From Clostridiales bacterium UBA3678 (GTDB lineage: Bacteria; Bacillota; Clostridia; TANB77; CAG-508): a stretch of DNA of 64,000 nucleotides. Below are positions 5,419 through 61,203 of this stretch, in pieces (position 1 is the stretch's first letter; every line of letters begins with the position of its first letter). The position numbers and the translations under genes were made by a program. The stretch is from contig DFJF01000016.1 of NCBI GenBank assembly GCA_002372935.1, forward strand, positions 395 through 64,394, given 5' to 3'. The notes beneath the pieces were generated by a model. It saw nothing but the letters and a program-made list of their open reading frames with translations, did no database searches and was not told the origin of the DNA.

Positions 5419-7057
5419 CTAATACATTGGTGTTCCATAACCTAAAATATCACTACTATCTATGGCATATTCTTTTGCTTTGCAAATATCTCCTCTTGTA
5501 TTTCCCTCAATAGTATAAACTTTACTATTTTCACTTTTTTCTACAATTCCAACGTGATCTGCTTTTCCATCTCGTTTATCTGCCCAATCAAAGAAAATTA
5601 TATCTCCGTGCTTTTGGACTATAACCTCTTTCTTGCCATAAGCCACAAGTTTTAAACCAAGTAACTCCCTCTATTTGACAACTTGCAAATTTAGGTATAA
5701 TTCCACCATCTATATAACCACATTGATTAGCACACCAACTGACAAAACAAGCACACCATTCTACCCTAGAAGAAAATCCGTACCAACTCCAATAAGGTTG
5801 TCCTCCTACATTACCAATTTGAGAAAATGCTACTTGTACTATATCATTACTTCCTGCAGATGAACCATATAAAACATTAGACCACATTGACAAGTATTCT
5901 TCTTTTCTTATTTCAGCAAGTTGTTCCTTTTGTTTATTATTCATATTATACTTTTCTATCATTTCTTCAACAGATTTCTTTTTTACAGTTATATACAAAA
6001 CTTTTCTTTTTGATTTTTCTGTTTTTTTATTGCCGTTTTCATCTGTTGTTTCTATATCTTTTTCTACTTCTTCAACCTTTGAGGATATTTCGTTCATTTC
6101 CCAGAATATATCTTTTAATTTTTGTATTTTTTTATCATCTAAAGTTATTACATCACTTTGTTCTTCTCCATTTGTTACTAAAACTGCATAAACTGATATA
6201 ATATCTCTCCATTCTGCCCTTTCTGATTTTATTTCATAATCGTCGTGTGCATTATTGTTTTGTATTTCAGTTATTTTATTTGCAAATTCCGTGTTTATTT
6301 CTGTTACAACAGAACTCATTGTTCTATCATTTGTTTTATTTTTATTACTTGATTTCTTTTCATTTGAGAAGAATATTCCAAAAACAGAACTACATATTAG
6401 TCCTATCATACAAATAATTATAACTATTACAAGTGCTATCCATCCACCTGCAATAAGTGCCGTAATAAGTGCTTTTAGTCCTGCAATTATTCCTTTTACT
6501 GCTGATATTGTTGCTTTTGCTCCTACTTTAACACCCTTTGCAACACCTTTTGCAGTAACTTTTGCTACTTGATATGTTTTCTTTAACCCTCTTGCTGTTT
6601 GTTTTGCAACAACTTTAGTTCCTTTCATTGTTCTTTCAGCAGTTTTAGGTGCATTTTTTACTATTCTTTTTGTATTCTTTTGTGCAACATTTTTTATAGT
6701 TTTATTTCCTTTATCTACTATTCCTTTGATTTCTTTTGTTTTCTGCTTTATAGTTCTATTTTGAATTTTCTTTTTTATTTTATCTTTTGCAAATTCTATA
6801 TTTTGCTTTGTTTGTTTTACTGATTTTTGCCCATATTTATTAAAAGTATTTATACCTTTATTTGATATTGTTCTTGTTGTATTAGAAATTTTATCTGCTC
6901 CATATTCTGTTGGTGTATTATCCTCTTTATTGCTTATATCATTTGTTTTTTCTTTTACATCTACAAGATTACTTTTTAATTTTTGTGTGTAAATTTCTGC
7001 TTTGTTTATCTTCTTAATTTTTATATCACTTTTTTTCTTTATCTTTATATCAGCCAA
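5419..7057 (-). pseudogene. membrane-anchored CHAP/NlpC-P60-type cell-wall hydrolase of the T4SS, interrupted by a 1-nt insertion
   Basis: ORFs 5588..7057 and 5419..5646 overlap. Removing the extra base at about 5608 (coding strand GCA-C-GGAGAT) gives ...WQERGYSPKA/GDIIFFDWADKRDGKADHVGIVEK. Catalytic-type Cys in 'VEWCACFVSWCA' and His in 'DHVGIV'. Central TM 'WIALVIVIIICMIGLICSSVFGIFF'. Confidence 0.75.
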
Positions 7058-11367: not shown

Positions 11368-12381
11368 TTACCTATCGTCCTTTCTTTTAGTTTTGTCTTT
11401 ATATAATTTCATAACATCTGGAACATCACATTTTACTTCATTTTCAATTTTAGTCTTCGTAATGCCATTTTCCTTACAATATTTCAAGTAATTTTGCATT
11501 CCTTTTTTGTTTTCAATTTCTTCTGGATACATTTCTTCTATATAGTTCCATACATTATAATGGACAACAAAGTCATTTGAATTAAACATCTGATAATCAT
11601 TTTCTAAATATTCAAATAAATGCTCCTCATAATTAAATCTCCATTCTTCTAAAGAGCTTATTTTATCTTCTAAATTTTTCATATATGGCTTTATAAAACA
11701 AAACTTTTCAGTATTTGTATCGTACATTACTACTACTGAATTTTTAGGATTTTTGCTATTAACTAATACATATATTTCTGATAAATTTTTCGGATTGCTT
11801 ATTAAATGTTTATCCCATAAAAATTCCTCTGTTTCTTTTTGTTCTAGTAATGATTTTACCTCATCTTGTATTTTTTCTTTTACTTCTTCTAATGAATTAC
11901 CTTTATATTTTTCATACTCTACAAAATGAGCGTGAATTTTCAAATATTCCATTGTACCAACCTTGTCGTATTTATATAGTTCTTCCATATTAAATTTGGC
12001 AAACATAACATTACAATAATCTAGTATTTTATTTTCTAGCAATTTATCAATAATTTCTTTATCGTTTTCGCTATCAACAAGAACACAATCTGGAGTTGGT
12101 GCAGGTGGAATCACTAATTCTACACCATCTTTTGTTATTTCCTTTTCTTCTTTTGTTTCTCTATCTATCATTAAGACTTTTAAAAGTTTTGTATTTTCAT
12201 AAGTGCTTACTTTCAAGTTATATTCTTTATCTTTAAATTTAAAAATTTCATTTGTATCATTTAATGCTTTTATTGTTGCCTCATAATCATTTTCTGTTAG
12301 ATAACTATAAGAATTTAAAAATTCTTCTTTGCTTAATTCATAAAAGTCCCTCATTTTTTCTTCATCATTTATAAAATCCAT
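11368..12381 (-). CDS. hypothetical ICE protein
   Basis: 337-aa acidic ORF tightly packed in the T4SS operon. No motif recognised. Confidence 0.5.
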   Translation of the reverse strand: MDFINDEEKMRDFYELSKEEFLNSYSYLTENDYEATIKALNDTNEIFKFKDKEYNLKVSTYENTKLLKVLMIDRETKEEKEITKDGVELVIPPAPTPDCVLVDSENDKEIIDKLLENKILDYCNVMFAKFNMEELYKYDKVGTMEYLKIHAHFVEYEKYKGNSLEEVKEKIQDEVKSLLEQKETEEFLWDKHLISNPKNLSEIYVLVNSKNPKNSVVVMYDTNTEKFCFIKPYMKNLEDKISSLEEWRFNYEEHLFEYLENDYQMFNSNDFVVHYNVWNYIEEMYPEEIENKKGMQNYLKYCKENGITKTKIENEVKCDVPDVMKLYKDKTKRKDDR

Positions 12382-12396
12382 ATTTTCACAACCTTT

Positions 12397-13235
12397 CTAT
12401 AATCCCATCATTTCACGAACAACTCTGTCTGATGCCTTTACCGTACCTACTAAAACTAGCATATTAAAGACTAATTCTCCTACATAACTCCATACTTGAT
12501 TAACTGCTTGTGCAGAAGTATCTACCGATGGTGGAGAACTTGCAAACAGAGAAAATATAATACACGCTAATACTATAATTGCTCCCTCTAAACATACTGC
12601 ACAATATCCTTTTAAAAAACTTTTTCCAACTTGTTGTGTAGGCTCTCCGTCCAAAAGTAGATAGTGGTATTGGTGCTAATGCCGTGTATAAATACATTTT
12701 GAAAAATCTACCATAGACAGTTAATATCATTATAAATGATAGAATTGTAATCAAAAGTCCACCGAATTAAAGTAACTGCCCATAATGGAATACTCTCAAA
12801 AAAGCCACAAGATTCAATAGTTTCTATCATTTCTTGTGGTAATGCTGTTTGTGTTGCATTTCCTAGTCCTGCCGTCTGCATTATTGTCTGCATAACACCC
12901 TGTACTATTTTAAATATTGATAGCATTAGTTCAAGCCCATAAGTTATTACTGCTTTTGCTAGTGCAAATCTTACAAAAAGTTTTACAACTTGTTCTGGCT
13001 TTTTTACTTCTGCAAAACTGCCACAAGTTTTTACAACACCAATTAAAAAGAATATCACAAGTAAAGCCAAGCCTATTGCTTGTACTGCTCCATTTATATT
13101 TACAATTACATTCCAAATACTGCCACCTTTAAATTGTTCTGGACTTTGTGTTATAAGTGTCCATATTTCATTTAATTTTCCATTCCAAGTATCAAGTGCA
13201 TTTTGTAAATTTCCTACTACCCAATTATCTGACAT
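12397..13235 (-). pseudogene. VirB6/TrbL-like polytopic T4SS membrane protein, interrupted by two 1-nt insertions
   Basis: Three overlapping fragments (12708..13235, 12500..12754, 12397..12654). They join as ...PLWAVTLI/GGLLITILSFIMILTVYGRFFKMYLYTALAPIPLSTFG/GEPTQQVGKSFLKGYCAV... when the extra bases at 12764 (ATT-C-GGTGGA) and 12649 (GGA-C-GGAGAG) are removed. Several hydrophobic helices. Confidence 0.7.
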
Positions 13236-51899: not shown

Positions 51900-52161
51900 T
51901 GATTAAATTCTATCTATTTTAAAAGAGAAAAAGTTAAGACATATTCGTTTTCATGATTTAAGACATTCATGTGCAAATACCTTTTACTTTTAATTTTTGC
52001 CTATTTTCTTAAGATAAAATTAAACAAGAACTAAAAAATCGTTGTTATCGTGATTATGTCTTATTTTATACAGGTATAAACATATAAAAAATTATCCTTA
52101 TCAAATTTCTTTGAACCCTCGTTAATCAAGCAAGAAATTTTGATAAGAATAATTCATATAT

Positions 52162-52236
52162 TGGTTGGGCTGGCTAGATTCGAACTAGCGCATGCATGAG
52201 TCAAAGTCATGTGCCTTACCACTTGGCTACAGCCCA
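52162..52236 (-). tRNA. tRNA-Gln (anticodon UUG)
   Basis: Hand-folded. Acceptor TGGGCTG/CAGCCCA, anticodon arm CATGA-CTTTGAC-TCATG, T-arm GCTAG-TTCGAAT-CTAGC, encoded CCA. Confidence 0.85.
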
Positions 52237-52247
52237 ATGTTTATTTA

Positions 52248-52325
52248 TGGGGTGGAAGATGGGACTCGAACCCACGGTCTCCAGTGCCACAAACTGGCGC
52301 GTTAACCAGCTACGCTACATCCACC
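52248..52325 (-). tRNA. tRNA-His (anticodon GUG)
   Basis: Hand-folded. Extra 5' G (G-1) typical of tRNA-His, D-arm GCGT-AGCTGGTTA-ACGC, anticodon arm CCAGT-TTGTGGC-ACTGG, T-loop TTCGAGT, encoded CCA. Confidence 0.85.
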
Positions 52326-52406
52326 ATTTTCAATACATCAACTATTGTACAACAAAATGGTGGTGTTTGTCAACTGTTTTTTTATTTTTTCTGTTTTTTT
52401 AGCAAT

Positions 52407-53561
52407 TTATTTTATTTCTGTATACAATATTCCAGATTGTAGTTTAATACCCTTTGCTTCTGCCATTTCTGATATAGTTACCAATTGGTATCCTTTTTTT
52501 ATCAACTCTGGAACTATAGTCTTTACTGCTTCTGCTGTTGACTTGTAAATTGAATGCATCAAAACTATTTTTCCATCATAATTTGAATATTTTCTTACTT
52601 CTTTTATAACGCTTTCTGCATTTTTAGATTCCCAATCTAATGTATCTATATCCCAACCAATTAATGCATAATTATTTAAATATGATTTTACTAAAAAGTT
52701 TGCATTTCCATATGGTGGTCTAATTAATTTTGAAGTATGTCCTAAAATTTTTTGCATTTGCTCATCAGTTTTTTCTTGTTCTTCTAAAACTTCATTTTCG
52801 CTTAATGTATTTAAGTTTTTATGAGAATATGTATGTGACGCTACTTCACATCCAATTTTCTCTTCTCTTTTTACTATTTTAGAATTATTCTCCATCAAAC
52901 TTCCTAAGTCAAAAAATGTAGCTCTTGCATTATATTTTTCTAACGTATCTAATATAATAGGTGTTGATACAGGATTTGGTCCATCATCAAATGTAAGTGC
53001 AACCATTGGTTTATTTTTATCTAATTTTCTTGGATTTATTATTTCTGTATCAATTTCGTTATGTTCTGCTTCTTCTGGTTTTTCTGTAGTTAAATATTTA
53101 CTATATATAAATCCTTCTTTATTATTATATTTAACTTTGCACCAACCATTATCTTGAGATTTTATTAATGTGGCAGACTCCTCTGCATTTATTTTTCCAA
53201 TTACTGCACTTTTTTCAGAATCCTCTTTTCTTATATTGATTTTTGTAATTGCATAAACTAATGTGCCTTTTTGTGCATTTGAAACATCATAATTTTCAGA
53301 ATTATGATTATTATTACTATCATTGCTATCATTAATAGTATTATCTTCATTATTATCGGCATTATTATTTTCTGCATTACTTGCCTCGTTACCATTCATT
53401 TCATAATTTGTTTCATTTTCTGCTACACTAGTAGATGTTTGCACAGTCTTTTTATATTTTATAATATATATAAGAGCCACAATTGCTATTATAATTGCTA
53501 CTAGTATTATTACATTGGTTTTATTTATTGTTTGTTTTTCTGATTCCATTTTTATCTCCAT
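52407..53561 (-). CDS. polysaccharide/peptidoglycan deacetylase (NodB domain) with SH3-like domain
   Basis: 384 aa. TM anchor, Asn/Asp-rich linker, SH3b-like 'NGWCKVKYNNKEGFIYSKYL'. NodB motifs 'VALTFDDGP', 'EVASHTYSH' and 'LIRPPYG'. Confidence 0.8.
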   Translation of the reverse strand: MEIKMESEKQTINKTNVIILVAIIIAIVALIYIIKYKKTVQTSTSVAENETNYEMNGNEASNAENNNADNNEDNTINDSNDSNNNHNSENYDVSNAQKGTLVYAITKINIRKEDSEKSAVIGKINAEESATLIKSQDNGWCKVKYNNKEGFIYSKYLTTEKPEEAEHNEIDTEIINPRKLDKNKPMVALTFDDGPNPVSTPIILDTLEKYNARATFFDLGSLMENNSKIVKREEKIGCEVASHTYSHKNLNTLSENEVLEEQEKTDEQMQKILGHTSKLIRPPYGNANFLVKSYLNNYALIGWDIDTLDWESKNAESVIKEVRKYSNYDGKIVLMHSIYKSTAEAVKTIVPELIKKGYQLVTISEMAEAKGIKLQSGILYTEIK

Positions 53562-53619
53562 TTTTTAACTTCTATTGAAATAATTGATAAAAGATTTAAA
53601 CTTTAATATATTAAAATTT

Positions 53620-53694
53620 TGGTTGGGGTGGTAAGATTCGAACTTACGCATTGATGGGTCAGAGCCACCTGCCTTACCGCTTGGCGACACCCCA
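53620..53694 (-). tRNA. tRNA-Gln (anticodon CUG)
   Basis: Hand-folded. Acceptor TGGGGTG/CACCCCA, anticodon arm GGTGG-CTCTGAC-CCATC, T-arm GTAAG-TTCGAAT-CTTAC, encoded CCA. Confidence 0.85.
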
Positions 53695-53786
53695 ATATTT
53701 CTTAACCACTCCTATTATACAAAAAAAATTGATTAATTTCAAGTCTTTTTCGATTTTATTTCATATAAATTATAGCATTCTATTTT

Positions 53787-55022
53787 TTATTTTTTTCTTC
53801 TCAAAATCCAACCACTTTCACAATTAATTGGTAATTTCATTTTTACTTGTTGTCCTTGTTTTCCAGGATTTATTGTATCAATCTCTTCATCACTATCAAT
53901 ATCCCATAATTTTTCTATGTTAAATTTTACGGGATCGATTTTTCCAGGAATCAAAATTTCTAAATCATCTCCAACTGAAAGTTTATTTCTTATCTCTATT
54001 ATAGATTTTTCATTACAATATTTTAAAATTTTGCCACCAAATTCATAATTTGTATTATATTGTTTTCCTTCATATTCTTGAATATCTTTATTATTTCTAT
54101 CATTAAAGTAAAAAGTAGTTAAACCTCTTGTTTTTACTTTTTCTATTTCTTGAACATATTTATTAATATTGTTTTCAAATACTTCTTTCCCTTTATAATA
54201 ATCATCAATTGCACTTCTATATATATTTATAATGCTTGCTAAATAATATTCTGTTTTGAGTCTTCCTTCTATTTTCATGCTGTCAACACCCATTTCAATA
54301 ATCTCTGGAATTTCTCGTATTAAACATAAATCTTTTGAAGAAAAAATACTTGTACTTTTTTCATCCATTTCTATTGGCATTAAATTACCAGGATTATTCC
54401 TTTCTTCTGCATATAAATTATATGACCATCTACAGCTTTGTGCACAATCGCCTAAATTTGCGCTACGTCCTGCCAAAAAATCACTTAAAAAACATCTTCC
54501 AGAATATGAAAAGCATATTGCACCATGAACAAAAATTTCGACTTCCATTCCTTTTGGCTTATTCTCCATAATATATTTTAATTGCTCTTTGTTTAATTCT
54601 CTAGCCATAATCATTCTTTTAGCACCATAATTATACCAAAATTTACAATCTTCCAAACTTACAATATTGCTTTGTGTACTTACATTAATAGGAATGTCTG
54701 GTGCATATTTTTTTATAACTTCCATAACTCCTGGATCTGCAACAATAATTCCATCAGGTTTTTCTCTCTCTAATTGTTTTACTAATTCTATTATTTCTGG
54801 GTATTTATCGTCCCAGGCAAAAATATTTAATGTTACATAAACTTTCTTTCCCATTTTATGTGCATATTTTATTGTTTTTAATAAATCATCATCTTCCATA
54901 TCTGCTCTAGTCCTCAAAGATAATGATGATGTGCCACAATATACCGCATCTGCTCCATACATAAATGCAGTTTTTGCCTTTTCAAAAGATCCTGCTGGTG
55001 CTAATAATTCAATTTTATTCAT
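53787..55022 (-). CDS. peptidase U32 family protein (PrtC/YrrN-YrrO-like)
   Basis: 411 aa. N-terminus 'ELLAPAGSFEKAKTAFMYGADAVY' and 'MKIEGRLK' are typical of the U32 family. Confidence 0.8.
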   Translation of the reverse strand: MNKIELLAPAGSFEKAKTAFMYGADAVYCGTSSLSLRTRADMEDDDLLKTIKYAHKMGKKVYVTLNIFAWDDKYPEIIELVKQLEREKPDGIIVADPGVMEVIKKYAPDIPINVSTQSNIVSLEDCKFWYNYGAKRMIMARELNKEQLKYIMENKPKGMEVEIFVHGAICFSYSGRCFLSDFLAGRSANLGDCAQSCRWSYNLYAEERNNPGNLMPIEMDEKSTSIFSSKDLCLIREIPEIIEMGVDSMKIEGRLKTEYYLASIINIYRSAIDDYYKGKEVFENNINKYVQEIEKVKTRGLTTFYFNDRNNKDIQEYEGKQYNTNYEFGGKILKYCNEKSIIEIRNKLSVGDDLEILIPGKIDPVKFNIEKLWDIDSDEEIDTINPGKQGQQVKMKLPINCESGWILRRKK

Positions 55023-55071
55023 ATTTTACTTCCTCTCTTTTGAAATTATACCACAAAAAATCCCATATTTC

Positions 55072-55100
55072 TAGACTTTTTTGTCAATTTATGATATAAT
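55072..55100 (+). promoter_or_regulatory. sigma-A-type promoter for 55156..56949
   Basis: TAGACT - 17 nt - TATAAT, with a TG extended -10 (aTGaTATAAT). Confidence 0.5.
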
Positions 55101-55155
55101 ATTAGTGTTTGCTGTGAATAGTAAACAAAATTAATTAAGAAAGGATTTATTTTTT

Positions 55156-56949
55156 ATGACAAATAATTTTAAAGAAAGTCTTAAAGTTGAAAAAATTGGT
55201 TCTACTGATAAAGATATTTTTGAAAAAAATTATTTAGAACTATTAACTATTTTGAAAAATATCGATTTTGAAAAAATTATTCCAAACGACAATAATAAAG
55301 TAAATTTGCAAAATTATAAATTAGAAAATAAAGAGATTAATGATAAAGCAGAATTATCAGATGAAGAAGTTAGAGCAATAATTGATAGAATTAAATTATT
55401 ATCTTCACCAAAATATTTAAAATATCTAAAAGAAAAAGAGATTCCTAATAGATCTACTAAGCCAAATTTTTCTGGTCTTTCTGAGAAGGAAAGAGCTATT
55501 AAAGAGTCAAATTACTCAAAACAATTAGCTGATGAAGAAAAAAATATTAAATGTATGTATTACATAAAAGAACTTGTTGATAAATTTTTGTATTACTATA
55601 ACCCTAAAAGTAGAGAGTATTTTATAAATCTTTGTACTAATTTATTATTACAATACTCGGAGAGTCACCCTGAAGAAATAACAAATATTCACTTTAGATT
55701 TAAATCTCCTAAAGGTTTAGCAACAAAGTGTGGAAAAAACATTATTCTTAACAGTCACTTTGAAAGAGATCCTCAAACTGGAAAAGATGTTTTAAAATAT
55801 AAAGAAGTTAATGATGCATTTGGTGCAAAAATTATTAGTCAAAAGGGATATAATCCAGAAGTTTCATCAGACAAAGAGATTCAAAATCTAATTGATTTAA
55901 GGAACTCAAGAAAAAATAAATTGAAAAAATATCAATTGTTTAAAGAAAGAATTGAAAGTTTATTATCAGGTGAAAATCAATCAATAACATATAGAGAATA
56001 CTATGATCATTGCCTTGGTATATTGGAGCAAGAAAAAGACATTATAAATAAAAATGAAACAGAGTTCTTGCAATCTATCCAAGATGATATACTTAATATA
56101 CAAAATCTAAAAGCTTCTCTTGATACTACTTCAAGTTTAGATGATTCAATAAATTTAGAAACTCTCGAAGACCCTAATATTAATTTTAACAAATTTTTTA
56201 CAGAATATACTTCTAAAATTCCTTCTGAATTAACTGTCGCCGGTCTAAAAAAAGGTCTGAATAAAATATTTAATAATACAGGTGAAACAAATAATGATAT
56301 ATTAAAAAACAATATTTTAAAAGCTTTTAAAATTAATGTTTATGAAATTGAAGAAAAACATACTCCTAGTGGTCATGAAGGAATACACTACGATATTAAT
56401 ACACCTTTTGGAAATTTTGAATTACAAGCTCAAAATGAAGAACAATATATTTCTGATCAAAAAGGGATAACAAATGCTCATGCTCTTATGGATGGAAAAA
56501 AAGTTCCTAACTATAAAGTTCCAATTACATACAATTCAATTCCTAAAAATGAGAAAAAAAAATATATAAAAATAGAAACTGATGATGGGGCTATACAATA
56601 TTATAAAAAATCTGAGGTTGATGAGTTTGTTAAAAAAGTAGAATATTTGACAGCCAAAAAAGGCAAAATTACTTATCATAATGGACTAGAAAATGCTCAA
56701 ATTGAATTATATTCATCACTATACAATTATTATTCTTTAGCTATGGAAATTCCAGATAGTGATCCTCATAAAAAAGATGTATTAAATTATTTTACAAATC
56801 TTGAAAATAAAGAATATAATATTAGAAATATTCTATTTCAGCAGGTTAATTCTTCTGTAAAACATATGAAAATCTCACAGATTAAAGATTATGTTTTCAA
56901 TTTAAAACAAATGCCTCAAAATACAAATGAAGATCAAAGCGAAAGATAG
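55156..56949 (+). CDS. divergent RelA/SpoT-like nucleotidyltransferase-domain protein with a large insertion
   Basis: 597 aa. 'HFRFKSPKGLATKCGK' (RxKSxxSxxxK-like), 'VNDAFGAKIIS' (DxxGxRI-like), an insertion of about 160 aa, then 'HTPSGHEGIHYDINTPFGNFELQAQNEE'. That last motif aligns to 'NGYxSlH....vEiQiRT', but the Arg-Thr is replaced. Confidence 0.55.
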   Translation: MTNNFKESLKVEKIGSTDKDIFEKNYLELLTILKNIDFEKIIPNDNNKVNLQNYKLENKEINDKAELSDEEVRAIIDRIKLLSSPKYLKYLKEKEIPNRSTKPNFSGLSEKERAIKESNYSKQLADEEKNIKCMYYIKELVDKFLYYYNPKSREYFINLCTNLLLQYSESHPEEITNIHFRFKSPKGLATKCGKNIILNSHFERDPQTGKDVLKYKEVNDAFGAKIISQKGYNPEVSSDKEIQNLIDLRNSRKNKLKKYQLFKERIESLLSGENQSITYREYYDHCLGILEQEKDIINKNETEFLQSIQDDILNIQNLKASLDTTSSLDDSINLETLEDPNINFNKFFTEYTSKIPSELTVAGLKKGLNKIFNNTGETNNDILKNNILKAFKINVYEIEEKHTPSGHEGIHYDINTPFGNFELQAQNEEQYISDQKGITNAHALMDGKKVPNYKVPITYNSIPKNEKKKYIKIETDDGAIQYYKKSEVDEFVKKVEYLTAKKGKITYHNGLENAQIELYSSLYNYYSLAMEIPDSDPHKKDVLNYFTNLENKEYNIRNILFQQVNSSVKHMKISQIKDYVFNLKQMPQNTNEDQSER

Positions 56950-56968
56950 ACATAATTTCTTTACATAT

Positions 56969-56997
56969 TTGACTGTTTTTGGCATTTATGGTATAAT
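56969..56997 (+). promoter_or_regulatory. sigma-A-type promoter for 57073..57996
   Basis: TTGACT - 17 nt - TATAAT, with a TG extended -10 (aTGgTATAAT). Confidence 0.6.
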
Positions 56998-57072
56998 TAA
57001 AGTGTGACAAAGTGTTTTCTCACAAATAGATTAGGCAATAAATAAAAACAACATAAGGAGATTAAAAACAAT

Positions 57073-57996
57073 ATGGAACAAAAAACATTAGATAGAATTC
57101 ATCAGGCTTATGTTGATGCCTGTGAAAACCCTGACACACACAACATTATTGACATTTTGGTAGAATTGTATGATAATCTTTTATCATATACACCAAACTC
57201 AAATGATCAAAAAGATTTTGATATTTTTTTAAGAAATATCGAACGCGCGATTAATACTAGAAAGAGAACTTTTGAAATCACTAATCTGGTTTCTGATGTA
57301 CTCTTCTGTATGATGTACATTACAATTTGGGCAAATGATGTTTATAATTTGAATCTTGATTTAAATCTTATTGCTCGTCGTAAATCACTTGAAAGCGAGT
57401 TAGTAAAACTGTTGGAAAAAGATCAAGTTCATGACAGATTCGGTGTTAGAACTATTTTACTAAATCAGTTTAGTGAAGATATCAATACACAAAAATTAAG
57501 AGCATTCTCTGAGTATTGTATTAATATCTTTACTTCTCGCAATCGTAAAGATTTGACTGATTTTACTAAATGGGTAATGACAAATCCAAATATCAATGAT
57601 TATACTAAGGAACGTATTCATTATATCCTTAATATTCCATTTTCATTTAAAAGATATAAGGATTATATCAAAAATCCAAAGCCAAATGGTTATCAATCAA
57701 TTCACTACTGTTTAGTAGTTGATATGTATTCTGATTGGTTACCTGGTGCTGAAATTGAATGTCAATTCCGGACAAATGCAATGCATCAAGCAGCTGTAAA
57801 TAGTCCAAAACAGAGTCATCAAAACTATAAAAATGAGATTTTAATGGCTCATCGTGCAGTTTTTACAATTGAAGACTTTTCAAAAGTAAATATTGTTGGA
57901 TTCACCTCATACAATTCTGTAGATGATGATATTGATGGTATTCACTGGTACAAGAAAATCTTCAATCGACGTATTAGTAAAACATTGGTTTTATAA
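57073..57996 (+). CDS. small alarmone synthetase-like (RelA/SpoT synthetase domain) protein
   Basis: 307 aa. 'IARRKSLESELVKL', 'HDRFGVRTIL', 'YIKNPKPNGYQSIHY', 'AEIECQFRTNAMHQAA' and 'HQNYK' together form the full RelA_SpoT synthetase motif set. Confidence 0.8.
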   Translation: MEQKTLDRIHQAYVDACENPDTHNIIDILVELYDNLLSYTPNSNDQKDFDIFLRNIERAINTRKRTFEITNLVSDVLFCMMYITIWANDVYNLNLDLNLIARRKSLESELVKLLEKDQVHDRFGVRTILLNQFSEDINTQKLRAFSEYCINIFTSRNRKDLTDFTKWVMTNPNINDYTKERIHYILNIPFSFKRYKDYIKNPKPNGYQSIHYCLVVDMYSDWLPGAEIECQFRTNAMHQAAVNSPKQSHQNYKNEILMAHRAVFTIEDFSKVNIVGFTSYNSVDDDIDGIHWYKKIFNRRISKTLVL

Positions 57997-58028
57997 TTTT
58001 AAATTCAAAATTGTCTAATCTAAAAAAG

Positions 58029-58058
58029 CCCCAGGGTCTATTCCTGGGGTTTTATTTT
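58029..58058 (+). terminator. bidirectional intrinsic terminator between convergent genes
   Basis: AAAAAGCCCCAGG-gtctatt-CCTGGGGTTTTATTTT. It overlaps the stop codon of the O-methyltransferase gene on the other strand. Confidence 0.8.
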
Positions 58059-58643
58059 AGTTATAGCTAATCCATCTCCAACTTCTAAAATTTGCGTTTC
58101 TAAGTTTGGATTATCTGTTGTTTCTTTAATATATTCTCTTAAATTTCTAACAGCAGTACGTTGTTTATGTTTGTTATAATCACTCATAACATAGCCTTTA
58201 TATAAAATATTATCAGCAAAAATAATCCCATCTTTTTTCAGTAATCTTAATGCTTCTTTTAGGAAAAATGGGTATTTACCTTTTGCGGCATCTATAAATA
58301 CCATATCATATTTTTTGTTTAATGTAGGGAGAATTTCTACTGCATCTCCTTCATAAATATGAATTACTTTTTCCAAATTCATATTTTTTAAGTTGTTTTT
58401 TGCTTCTATTATTTTTTCTTTATCTCTTTCTATAGTATCTATTTTTCCGTTTTCACTTAATATTTTTGTAAAACATATAGCTGAATACCCTACAGCTGTA
58501 CCAATTTCTAAAATGTCATTTAGCTTATTTTCTCCAATAGTTTTATATATAGCTTCTAGGGTATCATCCATAATTATTGGTATATGTCTTTGTAAAGCAT
58601 TAATTTGTATTTCTTTCAAAATTGATTTTTTATCTTCCATCAT
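58038..58643 (-). CDS. class I SAM-dependent O-methyltransferase (YrrM/TrmR-like family)
   Basis: 201 aa. 'ILEIGTAVGYSAI' motif I, 'YDMVFIDAAKGKY' and 'GIIFADNIL' are typical of the caffeoyl-CoA OMT-like/YrrM family. Confidence 0.75.
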   Translation of the reverse strand: MMEDKKSILKEIQINALQRHIPIIMDDTLEAIYKTIGENKLNDILEIGTAVGYSAICFTKILSENGKIDTIERDKEKIIEAKNNLKNMNLEKVIHIYEGDAVEILPTLNKKYDMVFIDAAKGKYPFFLKEALRLLKKDGIIFADNILYKGYVMSDYNKHKQRTAVRNLREYIKETTDNPNLETQILEVGDGLAITKIKPQE

Positions 58644-58710
58644 TTTTGCTTTGTTTTCTTCCTTTTTTCATTTAATTTTACTATTTTTTAATCACATATC
58701 ACTAATATGT

Positions 58711-60525
58711 TTATGCTCTTCTTGCCATTCTTTCTCTTTCTTTATTATTTAAAATTTTCTTTCTTAATCTAATTGATTTAGGAGTAACTTCAACAAGCTC
58801 ATCATCTTGAATAAATTCGATTGCTTTTTCCAAACTCATTTGAATAGGTGGTACCAAACGTAATGCATCATCTGAACCTGAAGCTCTCGTATTTGTTAAA
58901 TGCTTTTCTTTACATACATTAACTGCCAAATCTTCTCCTCTAGCATTTAAACCAACAATCATTCCTTCATAAACATCAACACCTGGTCCTATAAATAAAT
59001 CTCCTTTTTCTTGTGCATTGTACAAACCATAAGTAATTGATTTTCCAGCTTCAAAAGCTACTATTGTACCTCTTACACGAGCAACAACCTCTCCTTTGTA
59101 TGGCTCATATCCTTTAAACATACTAGCCATTGTACCTTCACCTTTTGTATCTGTAAGAAATTCTGTTCTATAACCTATTAATCCTCTTGCAGGAATTGAA
59201 AATTCTATTTTAGTATGTCCATCTTCTGCTGGCTCCATATTAACCATTTCGCCTTTTCTTCTTCCCAATTTTTCTATAACTGTTCCTACTGAAGAATCTG
59301 GAACATTTACTACTAATGTTTCTATTGGCTCACATTTTTGACCATTTATTTCTTTAAAAATAACTTTTGGTCTTGAAACTAAAAATTCAAACCCTTCTCT
59401 TCTCATTGTCTCTATTAATACTGCTAAATGAAGCTCTCCTCTTCCAGCAACTTCAAATGAATCTGGAGTTTCTCCTTCCTTAACTCTTAAAGAAACATTT
59501 CTTTCAAGCTCTTTAAATAATCTATCTCTTAAATGTCTTGAAGTAACAAATTGACCTTCTTTTCCTGCAAATGGTCCATTATTTACACTAAATGTCATAC
59601 TTACTGTTGGCTCATCAATATTTACAAATGGTATTTTCTCTGTATGTTCTGGATCACAAATTGTATCTCCAATACTAATGTCTGGAATTCCTGAAACTTC
59701 GATTATATCTCCTGCTTTTGCTTCTTGTACTTCTACTTTTTTTAAACCTACATGTGTATAGACTTTTGTAATCTTTCCCTGTTCTATTTTATCACCATCT
59801 TTGCAGACTGCAACATTCATTCCTTCTAAAAATGCTCCTCTTTCAATTCTTCCAACTGCTATTCTTCCAACATATTCATCATAATCTATGTTAGAAACTA
59901 GCATTTGCGCTGGTCCCTCTTCATCACAATTTGGAGCATCTATTGTATTTACAATTGTTTCAAATAATGGGGTCATATCTGAATCTGAATCTTCCATATT
60001 CAACTTTGAAGTACCATTTTTAGCAGAAGCATAAACAACTGGGAAGTCCAATTGCTCATCTGAAGCATCTAGTTCTATAAATAACTCTATAACTTCATCT
60101 ACAACTTTTTCTGGTCTTGCACCAGGTCTATCTATTTTATTTATTACTACTATCGGTTTTAAATTCAATTCTAATGCCTTTTTTAAAACTTCTCTTGTCT
60201 GTGGCATTACTCCCTCAAAACTATCTACTAATAGCAAAACTCCATCTACTGTTTTTAAAACTCTTTCTACTTCTCCACCAAAATCGGCATGTCCTGGTGT
60301 ATCTACTATATTTATTTTTATGTCTTTGTACATTACTGATGTATTTTTTGATAGAATCGTGATTCCTCTTTCTTTTTCTAGGTCATTTGAATCCATAATT
60401 CGTTCTTGTACTTGTTCGTTTTCTCTAAATATGTGACTTTGTTTTAATAAACTATCTACTAATGTAGTTTTTCCATGGTCTACATGTGCAATTATTGCTA
60501 TGTTTCTTATTTTATTGTTATTCAT
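58711..60525 (-). CDS. typA: translational GTPase TypA/BipA
   Basis: 604 aa. 'IRNIAIIAHVDHGKTTLVD', 'DTPGHADFGGEVER' and 'NKIDR', plus the BipA-specific C-terminal domain. Confidence 0.95.
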   Translation of the reverse strand: MNNNKIRNIAIIAHVDHGKTTLVDSLLKQSHIFRENEQVQERIMDSNDLEKERGITILSKNTSVMYKDIKINIVDTPGHADFGGEVERVLKTVDGVLLLVDSFEGVMPQTREVLKKALELNLKPIVVINKIDRPGARPEKVVDEVIELFIELDASDEQLDFPVVYASAKNGTSKLNMEDSDSDMTPLFETIVNTIDAPNCDEEGPAQMLVSNIDYDEYVGRIAVGRIERGAFLEGMNVAVCKDGDKIEQGKITKVYTHVGLKKVEVQEAKAGDIIEVSGIPDISIGDTICDPEHTEKIPFVNIDEPTVSMTFSVNNGPFAGKEGQFVTSRHLRDRLFKELERNVSLRVKEGETPDSFEVAGRGELHLAVLIETMRREGFEFLVSRPKVIFKEINGQKCEPIETLVVNVPDSSVGTVIEKLGRRKGEMVNMEPAEDGHTKIEFSIPARGLIGYRTEFLTDTKGEGTMASMFKGYEPYKGEVVARVRGTIVAFEAGKSITYGLYNAQEKGDLFIGPGVDVYEGMIVGLNARGEDLAVNVCKEKHLTNTRASGSDDALRLVPPIQMSLEKAIEFIQDDELVEVTPKSIRLRKKILNNKERERMARRA

Positions 60526-60558
60526 TATTCTCTTCTCCTTTTATAAATTCACTTATCT

Positions 60559-60586
60559 ATTATACCATAAAAAAACATTTTGTCAA
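60559..60586 (-). promoter_or_regulatory. sigma-A promoter of typA
   Basis: Minus strand: TTGACA - 16 nt - TATAAT, with a TG extended -10 (aTGGTATAAT). Confidence 0.65.
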
Positions 60587-60588
60587 CA

Positions 60589-60645
60589 TAATTTATAGTC
60601 ACTTATTTGATTTTTATTATTAATTTATAGTCACTTTTTCGATTT
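60589..60645. repeat. two 25-bp direct repeats upstream of the typA promoter
   Basis: TAATTTATAGTCACTTATTTGATTT (60589-60613) and TAATTTATAGTCACTTTTTCGATTT (60621-60645). Spacing is 32 bp start to start. Confidence 0.8.
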
Positions 60646-60661
60646 AAATTTTTTATAAATG

Positions 60662-60697
60662 AAAAGGTCGATTTTACAATTGTAAAACCAACCTTTT
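60662..60697 (-). terminator. hairpin/terminator after 60736..61203
   Basis: AAAAGGTCGATTTTACAATTGTAAAACCAACCTTTT contains the 16-bp perfect palindrome TTTTACAATTGTAAAA, flanked by AAAGGT/ACCTTT. Confidence 0.55.
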
Positions 60698-60735
60698 AGT
60701 TTCTAGTAATCAAATTTATTTTTTATCTTACGTGT

Positions 60736-61203
60736 TTATGCTTCTTTAAAATGCGAACATTCAATTACAATCAACGCATCTTTTAAAGTATTAAAAGTTT
60801 CGCATCCAATTGTGATCCATGGATATTTTTCAATATTACATCCATAGTTTCGAACTCTTTCGCATCCTCCAAGTTCATCACTTGCCGAAGAAAGTCTCTT
60901 ACATGTATGTTCTGTAGAATAGCATTTATGCATTAACAATATTTCAGAATTTTCCATGCTGAGATTATACAGGATTCTTGAAAAATATAATCTTTCCCCA
61001 ATTTTCAATACAAAAGATGGAACTTTATCCTTTCTGTATTCAGTCAGCATTCTAGTTGTTACCTCAACTAATTGAAACTTTAAATGTCTAATAATCTTTT
61101 CGTAATTTTTCCGAAAAAAAATTACCTTATCAGCTTCAAGGAAATAAATCCCATCTTTCTCCACTAATTTTACATTCTTAACTGTAACTTTTTCTAGTCT
61201 CAT
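60736..61203 (-). CDS. hypothetical protein with Cys-rich C-terminal half
   Basis: 155-aa ORF. Contains one zero-frame CGG (Arg31, 61111-61113) that does not break the frame. No family recognised. Confidence 0.5.
   Translation of the reverse strand: MRLEKVTVKNVKLVEKDGIYFLEADKVIFFRKNYEKIIRHLKFQLVEVTTRMLTEYRKDKVPSFVLKIGERLYFSRILYNLSMENSEILLMHKCYSTEHTCKRLSSASDELGGCERVRNYGCNIEKYPWITIGCETFNTLKDALIVIECSHFKEA

Follow-up and report, generated by a model that had tools for sequence, protein, structure and literature searches.

Two RelA/SpoT-type synthetase-fold proteins, one canonical and one very divergent, in a conserved chromosomal slot of uncultured Clostridia

Enzymes of the RelA/SpoT homologue (RSH) superfamily control the stringent response, and divergent members have repeatedly shown new chemistry such as (p)ppApp synthesis and tRNA pyrophosphorylation. 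Stand-alone RSH proteins include RelP (SAS2/YwaC) and RelQ (SAS1/YjbM), the housekeeping small alarmone synthetases (SAS) of Firmicutes, and the toxic SAS (toxSAS: FaRel, FaRel2, PhRel, PhRel2 and CapRel), which also carry the SYNTH domain outside the long Rel/RelA/SpoT enzymes; CapRel SJ46 is a single gene with a fused regulatory domain. The toxSAS modules are defined by a conserved two- or three-gene operon of toxin-antitoxin (TA) type including an antitoxin (Jimmy et al. 2020, PMC7229694). CloRel is an uncharacterised SAS subgroup of Firmicutes (Atkinson et al. 2011, PMC3153485). Here we describe two tandem genes, A and B, found in a 64,000-nucleotide stretch of Clostridiales bacterium UBA3678 (contig DFJF01000016.1, positions 395 to 64,394), referred to below as the window:

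55156-56949, plus strand: gene A, open reading frame (ORF) of 597 amino acids
57073-57996, plus strand: gene B, ORF of 307 amino acids

We consider it probable, though by no means secure, that they encode two chromosomal pyrophosphokinases with partly redundant roles: B would make (p)ppGpp, and A would work with a modified acceptor pocket.

By its motifs and predicted fold, B can be assigned to the bona fide small alarmone synthetases of the RSH superfamily. RelA_SpoT (PF04607) is the sole Pfam family above threshold in this protein (46.5 bits for a cut-off of 27, E 5.1e-12). The SYNTH domain comes with neither an HD hydrolase domain nor TGS/ACT C-terminal domains, as in the SAS class. The catalytic set is complete (R-x-K-x-x-x-S, D-x-x-G-x-R, K-x-N-G-Y-x-S-x-H, E-x-Q-x-R-T and H-x-x-Y-K), and every string quoted in a first-pass annotation of this DNA, which had called the set complete, is present in the translation (RRKSLES, DRFGVR, PKPNGYQSIHY, EIECQFRTNAMH and SHQNYK). 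Among 36 B homologues, R-R-K-S-L-E-S, D-R-F-G-x-R, N-G-Y-x-S, E-x-Q-x-R and the His are invariant or nearly so. In the PDB, the sequence matches are RelSeq, RelA and YwaC; B aligns with RelSeq and E. coli RelA over K-x-N-G-Y-Q-S-I-H ... E-I-x-x-Q-x-R-T ... H-x-x-Y-K, all donor, acceptor and catalytic motif residues of RelSeq having aligned counterparts.

The AlphaFold model of B is confident (predicted local distance difference test, pLDDT, 93.2; predicted template modelling score, pTM, 0.89) and retrieves RelP/SAS2, Rel and RelA structures with Foldseek (E 5e-5 to 1e-3, probability 1.0). The template modelling scores reach just 0.4-0.6 because of parts added to the core: an N-terminal four-helix region of about 95 residues, a three-helix insertion (residues 135-186) between core strands 2 and 3, and a conserved C-terminal tail of about 50 residues, which ranks among the best-conserved parts of the B family. 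This family counts about 110 homologous clusters. When genome contigs were scanned with the B-family alignment, a true member was found at one of 80 loci (L001), the others being housekeeping Rel/RelA genes drawn in via the shared PKxNGYQS motif. As a catalytically intact SAS, B would most likely transfer pyrophosphate from ATP to the 3'-OH of a guanine nucleotide, GTP/GDP (or GMP), yielding (p)ppGpp.

B resembles RelP and RelQ in being a single-domain SYNTH protein with full catalytic, ATP and acceptor motifs, its top structural matches being RelP/SAS2, and in being a solitary chromosomal gene with a promoter-like site of its own and no antitoxin. The presence of two SAS-class genes in one genome also parallels RelP plus RelQ, although A is far more divergent than any of these. 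Profile scores nevertheless point to a B subfamily distinct from RelP and RelQ, and orthology with either was rejected (NCBIfam NF053588, GTPPhKinYjbM: 15.4 bits against a cut-off of 320). Like CloRel, B is a SAS restricted to Firmicutes/Clostridia and without described function. It could belong to that subgroup, the two being compared here by name and Firmicutes distribution. The CloRel paper describes no insertion-bearing family resembling A (PMC3153485).

Gene A gives no direct match to Pfam, NCBIfam, PADLOC or the PDB sequences. Its homology was established through its wider family, because direct tests of A by sequence, profile and structure gave nothing significant. A profile built from 16 members and run against 1.84 billion representatives retrieved 94 clusters at E <= 1e-3, so that the A family would comprise at least 94 clusters at 50% identity, without prior annotation. 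A repeat of the homologue search with an extended alignment returned only 16 already-known proteins, the word-based selection of candidates being saturated. Many of the 94 clusters are 450-530 amino acids long and lack the first ~120 residues of A. Source records call members 'hypothetical protein' or leave them nameless, and the family falls outside all NCBIfam and PADLOC models.

Pfam RelA_SpoT is matched by 17 of 55 full-length family members, with a best E of 7.9e-9. It is also the top, sub-threshold match of five of the ten close relatives of A (defined by A-profile E-values of 1e-32 to 1e-60), each time over the same region of the profile. Searched against 177,635 PDB sequences, the 55-sequence family profile finds RelSeq (E 3.1e-6) and E. 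coli RelA (E 3.7e-5), and RSH chains are its sole matches under E 0.1. Finally, hhalign relates the A family to the B family with 95.8% probability (P 7e-9).

The predicted structure of A is likewise confident (pLDDT 86.3, pTM 0.83). A helical N-terminal region is followed by R-F-K-S (181-184), which ends core strand 1, and by D220-A-F-G-A-K; a helical insertion of about 155 residues (~237-391 in the model) then splits the core. The second half contains G406-H-E-G-I-H, E422-L-Q-A-Q-N and H442 and precedes a C-terminal alpha/beta domain (~451-585). By DSSP, A shows a strand (175-182), a helix, a strand (222-230), the helical insertion (here 240-390), three strands (394-427) and a helix. This order is common to the A and B models, and canonical SAS enzymes have the same order of strands and helices. 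With insertions excised, the cores of A and B are colinear across all motifs in hhalign (P 6e-5), compared with P 0.06-0.09 for deliberately mispaired halves; this comparison is merely supportive, since the excised region was chosen with the hypothesis known. The insertion-deleted core of A alone reaches E 0.74 with RelSeq and 0.019 with Pfam RelA_SpoT. The top 12 PDB matches of the A model in Foldseek, all non-significant, are SpoT, RelSeq or an exported alarmone synthetase; the exported enzyme SaEAS (8vx3) and a model of phage Tas1 are among its highest-probability, equally non-significant, structural matches in the PDB and viral sets.

Taken at the level of remote homology, A is thus best described as a very divergent protein of the RSH synthetase fold. 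The first-pass annotation had given this fold to both products, and it was right, B being placed by Pfam and fold, A by transitive profiles, fold order and residues. It had also read in A a preserved first half of the fold, a large insertion and the loss of the Arg-Thr of E-x-Q-x-R-T, all of which we find again in the translation (HFRFKSPKG, DAFGAKI and GHEGIHYDINTPFGNFELQAQN). That A could be a recent tandem duplicate of B was considered and rejected: both families are old and present at other sites, and A is no closer to B than to RelSeq.

The residues conserved by the A family are informative as to its possible activity. Across the 55 members, which share a mean column identity of 17%, R181, K183, D220, E422 and H442 are invariant, and S184, G406, Q424 and G437 nearly so. 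In RelSeq and SAS enzymes, the equivalents of these residues serve in the binding of the ATP phosphates and Mg2+ and in catalysis. The acceptor side has changed in a systematic manner. D-x-x-G-x-R has become D-x-F-[AG]-x-K in the family; G-Y-x-S-x-H is G-[YF]-x-[SA]-x-F in the wider family and G-H-E-G-I-H in the narrow one; E-x-Q-x-R-T is E-x-Q-x-Q-[TS] in the wider family and E-L-Q-A-Q-N in the window protein, its Arg being replaced by Gln in 48 of the 55. The Mg2+ Asp and the acceptor-stacking Tyr of SYNTH enzymes are documented (bioRxiv 10.1101/2021.04.30.441581). The acceptor-side set of (p)ppGpp synthetases, which consists of the G-Y-x-S-x-H Tyr and His together with the E-x-Q-x-R-T Arg-Thr, is not present in A.

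Donor and catalytic residues kept next to a remodelled acceptor side suggest an active enzyme with a changed acceptor preference and not a pseudo-enzyme. Most likely, A would be neither a dead paralogue nor an antitoxin but a working pyrophosphokinase that differs in its preferred acceptor or in its regulation. Between the two options put forward earlier for A, pseudo-enzyme or changed specificity, the invariance of R181, K183, D220, E422 and H442 speaks for the second. In sequence divergence on a SYNTH fold and in an altered acceptor side, A recalls the (p)ppApp synthetases Tas1/Apk and the exported alarmone synthetases (PMC12691689). Unlike exported synthetases and Tas1, it has no signal peptide and no secretion-system domain and is not the C-terminal domain of a polymorphic toxin. 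Unlike all of these, A-type proteins are 450-600 amino acids long and carry the ~155-residue helical insertion inside the SYNTH domain.

A second line of evidence comes from the place where the two genes reside. We call slot the position between a U32 gene and an OMT-bipA pair, bounded in the window by:

53787-55022, minus strand: U32 peptidase-family gene, TrhP-like, left flank of the slot, divergent from the slot gene
58038-58643, minus strand: O-methyltransferase (OMT) gene, Methyltransf_3 in Pfam, right flank, convergent with gene B
58711-60525, minus strand: bipA/typA (Pfam), right flank beyond the OMT gene

The top NCBIfam match of the U32 gene is the tRNA U34 hydroxylase TrhP, under the equivalog cut-off. 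Neighbourhoods of A and B homologues (loci, numbered L) were collected, and the slot was found to hold:

B alone: L081-84 (59% identity to window B), L085-86 (49%), L088-89 (44%) and L001 (42%)
A alone: L090-91 (49% identity to window A), L093-95 (45%) and L092, L098, L099 and L100 (32-39%)
A and B in tandem: the window's own population, L096-97 (~100%), and L101/L102 (A 71%, B 81%)

At least two distinct lineage groups thus have A but no B in this slot, and three or more have B but no A. Identity of the flanks to the window is 67-95% for OMT, 73-94% for U32 and 82-99.8% for BipA. The slot is filled in every relative recovered, as far as 82% BipA identity, and the four-gene block U32|X|OMT-bipA is intact while the genes outside it vary by lineage. 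No small partner ORF was seen in 13 distinct slot loci, nor in five loci read outside the slot. Where A or B is alone, it directly adjoins the U32 and OMT genes of the opposite strand, with gaps too short to hold a partner gene. In trees of the flanking proteins, A-only and B-only lineages interleave, and the nearest flank relative of the window outside its A+B lineage is L081, which is B-only.

Since A-only and B-only loci occupy the same slot, the A-B pair is not an obligate module, contrary to what the presentation of B with a degenerate paralogue had implied. The simplest history would be an old A-B tandem in the slot followed by reciprocal losses, and reciprocal loss from such a tandem suggests that the two functions overlap. 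A -35 to -10 block can be aligned 5' of the slot gene at all related loci, be that gene A or B. The B-only locus L085 (5845-6003) and the A-only loci L090 (5853-6003) and L093 (1643-1790) have almost the same version of this promoter block (-35, T-rich spacer, TGnTATAAT), whose counterpart in the window lies in 55023-55158. The block is also similar to the promoter that separates A from B in the window, and A could be lost by recombination of one copy with the other.

Outside the slot, both kinds of gene are solitary. One B-like gene lies near glmS and another near dxs, beside a tyrosine-recombinase (Phage_integrase-family) gene. One A-like gene adjoins secA and another is directly 5' of gdpP-rplI-dnaB. 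In this last case (L107, 6001-9656), a distant A-family protein of 531 amino acids (P0168) is encoded directly 5' of a gdpP-type c-di-AMP phosphodiesterase gene on the same strand, followed by rplI and dnaB; the arrangement may tie an A-family member to another nucleotide second-messenger gene. At L081, a ParE-toxin gene with a 58-amino-acid upstream partner (5574-6055) stands beside the U32 gene; the window lacks this typical TA pair, which has no relation to the SAS gene. A 193-residue protein (P0111, from an ENA contig of ~1.5 kb) joins the N-terminal 107 residues of an OMT to the C-terminal ~86 residues of a B homologue, starting from LPGAEFELQFRT. It is probably an assembly chimera or the result of a local inversion/deletion, because B and OMT are convergent in all real loci.

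The window has a G+C content of 26.7% and carries nearly all its genes on the minus strand. A and B are its only long plus-strand ORFs, save for a single 155-amino-acid shadow ORF; the first-pass annotation had called them the only plus-strand coding block of the central 50 kb. The same annotation had proposed a promoter for each gene and a bidirectional terminator after the pair, and candidate sites of both kinds are there:

55072-55100, plus strand: promoter-like site 5' of gene A, TAGACT-17-TGnTATAAT, extended -10
56969-56997, plus strand: promoter-like site 5' of gene B, TTGACT-17-TGnTATAAT, extended -10
58025-58053, both strands: GC-rich hairpin with a 12-bp stem and T-runs on both sides, scored as a terminator in either direction

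Both promoter-like sites are near-consensus, and that of B is kept in the A+B relative L101. The hairpin sits between the convergent B and OMT genes and overlaps the final OMT codons, while a hairpin scan found nothing terminator-like between A and B. Each gene would thus be transcribed from its own sigma-A-type promoter, and transcription of A may read through into B. Directly 3' of the B promoter -10 lies an inverted repeat, TGTGA-N12-TCACA (57003-57024), largely kept in L101, which could be an operator. The Rfam scan showed no riboswitch or other RNA near A and B besides three tRNA genes, tRNA-Gln(ttg), tRNA-His(gtg) and tRNA-Gln(ctg), at 52162-52324 and 53620-53694, which flank an SH3/polysaccharide-deacetylase gene just past the U32 gene. 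On the other side, 3' of bipA, a minus-strand ORF of 155 amino acids (60736-61203) has no Pfam match, and an ORF of equal length exists at the corresponding place in L102.

The yrrM-like and U32 yrrN/yrrO genes, which are contiguous in B. subtilis, have the same order and strand here, and the pair had accordingly been viewed as an insertion between them. An ancient event of this kind is plausible; a recent one is not, as the insertion predates all sampled lineages. A horizontally acquired islet was likewise rejected, given the deep synteny and a composition like that of the surroundings (G+C of the A-B stretch 0.21-0.30, not distinct from its neighbourhood).

Selection on the slot and its flanks was estimated by comparing the window with L101 (dN/dS, ratio of nonsynonymous to synonymous substitution rates; dS, synonymous rate):

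A: dN/dS 0.23, dS 0.70
B: dN/dS 0.17, dS 0.69
U32: dN/dS 0.07, dS 0.39
OMT: dN/dS 0.11, dS 0.24
BipA: dN/dS 0.02, dS 0.05

A and B are under purifying selection, looser than that on the flanking genes. They are real genes and not chance ORFs, since homologues exist and dN/dS is far under 1; pseudogene status was rejected for both, the ORFs being intact and dN/dS about 0.2. Along positions 52000-61200, nucleotide identity to L101 is ~100% in bipA and downstream, ~92-95% in U32 and OMT, ~80% in A-B and 69-94% in the deacetylase gene. Such a mosaic suggests that strains have recombined and that the slot carries an older allele. L101 also has ~1.7 kb of extra DNA 3' of bipA, encoding a 449-amino-acid HTH_38 protein (11795-13144), possibly an IS30-type transposase, which is absent from the window near 60600-60750.

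Several points weigh against two resident pyrophosphokinases. The link of gene A with RSH enzymes, as drawn through profiles, is transitive, and in Foldseek no PDB match of the A model is significant (best E 0.23). A His stands in place of the acceptor-stacking Tyr in the narrow A family, where the Arg-Thr of E-x-Q-x-R-T is gone too, and with these losses catalysis by A on a nucleotide acceptor is not guaranteed. Moreover, A and B are 71% and 81% identical to their L101 counterparts where BipA is 99.8% identical, and dS is ~0.7 in the slot versus 0.05-0.39 in the flanks. This faster divergence, combined with presence/absence variation, resembles accessory or defence genes and is the main point for another explanation, namely that A, B or both are toxic RSH enzymes of CapRel type, self-inhibited and encoded by a single gene, the slot being a small variable defence site whose cassettes are swapped through conserved flanks. 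Related lineages do differ in slot content, the identity mosaic is typical of recombining accessory loci, and both proteins have N- and C-terminal regions outside the SYNTH core. B also has a weak match in PADLOC-DB v2, to the candidate system PDC-S33, at domain level over the shared RSH motif (residues 187-239, 39 bits, E 1.5e-10). It is the only one, however: neither B nor A has a full-length defence match in this database, A has no match of any kind, and the 55 A-family members gave a single chance-level one. B identity drops in the same order as flank identity (L081 > L085 > L088/L001), which fits vertical descent; dN/dS of 0.17-0.23 gives no whole-gene sign of diversifying selection, and the C-terminal tail of B is well conserved, unlike a fast-evolving sensor. 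In IMG/VR viral contigs, GenBank phages and PLSDB plasmids, searches for relatives of either family returned nothing except generic RSH genes that match at the motif level. We saw no mobility gene in those slot loci that were read, the window pair has neither an integrase or transposase gene nor a defence gene beside it, and most of the distant family members have housekeeping genes around them, the integrase neighbour of one B homologue mentioned above being set apart. A defence site therefore appears unlikely to us, and the phage-defence islet first suggested finds little echo in these searches. The toxSAS or TA module proposed along with it does not fit either: unlike toxSAS, A and B loci have no bi- or tricistronic operon with an antitoxin, in the slot or outside it, and no phage or plasmid association.

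Could A instead be a paralogue that has lost its catalysis or changed its use and now controls or neutralises B, whether as a pseudo-enzyme partner or as an antitoxin? It lies directly 5' of B with no terminator between them, co-transcription is possible, the tandem is retained in a second lineage (L101/L102), and the acceptor-side losses listed above would suit a pseudo-enzyme. Yet each gene is found in the slot without the other, the wider A family occurs as solitary genes elsewhere, and B has a strong promoter-like site of its own. Above all, the residues that are invariant over deep divergence are those for ATP, Mg2+ and catalysis, which loss of catalysis would not keep. We regard such a role as very improbable. 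A third explanation looks to the neighbourhood: A and/or B could act on a translation-linked macromolecule, for example the tRNA 3'-CCA end as do FaRel2/CapRel, in connection with the neighbouring tRNA U34 modification genes (trhP-like and trmR-like) and the ribosome GTPase BipA. The block U32|X|OMT-bipA is indeed intact where outer flanks differ in every lineage examined, and the acceptor-side residues of A are unlike those of (p)ppGpp synthetases. Furthermore, no sequence signature is reported to separate tRNA-modifying toxSAS from nucleotide-modifying SAS (bioRxiv 10.1101/2021.04.30.441581). On the other hand, the slot gene is on the strand opposite its neighbours and hence not in their operon, members outside the clade are in unrelated contexts, and B has the full set of RelSeq acceptor-motif residues. 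Whereas FaRel2 binds tRNA through a basic patch (bioRxiv 10.1101/2021.04.30.441581), the two proteins have isoelectric points of 6.35 and 6.51, neither being basic overall. This too we hold to be distinctly unlikely.

We thus return to the view of A and B as two distinct, long-resident chromosomal RSH members in an uncultured low-GC lineage of gut/rumen Clostridia. B would serve as the (p)ppGpp-making enzyme. A would have kept the ATP, Mg2+ and catalytic residues next to an altered acceptor side, a helical insertion and additional domains at both termini. The slot, bordered by the trhP-like U32 gene on one side and by the trmR-like methyltransferase gene and bipA on the other, would be old, lineages having kept A, B or both from an ancestral tandem, by reciprocal loss between proteins of overlapping function.

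What is new here is the existence of a sizeable, overlooked RSH-like family, that of A, and the either/or/both occupancy of one conserved slot by it and a canonical SAS; B itself is a new member of a class already known. Standard domain models miss the A family, and RSH censuses built on them could therefore overlook it. A stand-alone SAS beside an odd paralogue should not automatically be taken for a TA or defence module, and the pattern of slot occupancy is a genetic hint that the functions of the two families overlap. With its catalytic residues kept and its acceptor side systematically changed, the A family is a concrete candidate for a new substrate specificity. A bolder proposal, which we advance as tentative and rather doubtful, is that A represents a new and widespread RSH branch of Clostridia (450-600 amino acids, with an insertion in SYNTH), active on an acceptor other than GDP/GTP, be it another nucleotide or a translation-linked RNA or protein end, and able to replace a canonical SAS at the slot. 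If this were true, it would imply that these bacteria use another alarmone-like signal besides the first, or else that chemistry of toxSAS type can serve in housekeeping without being toxic.

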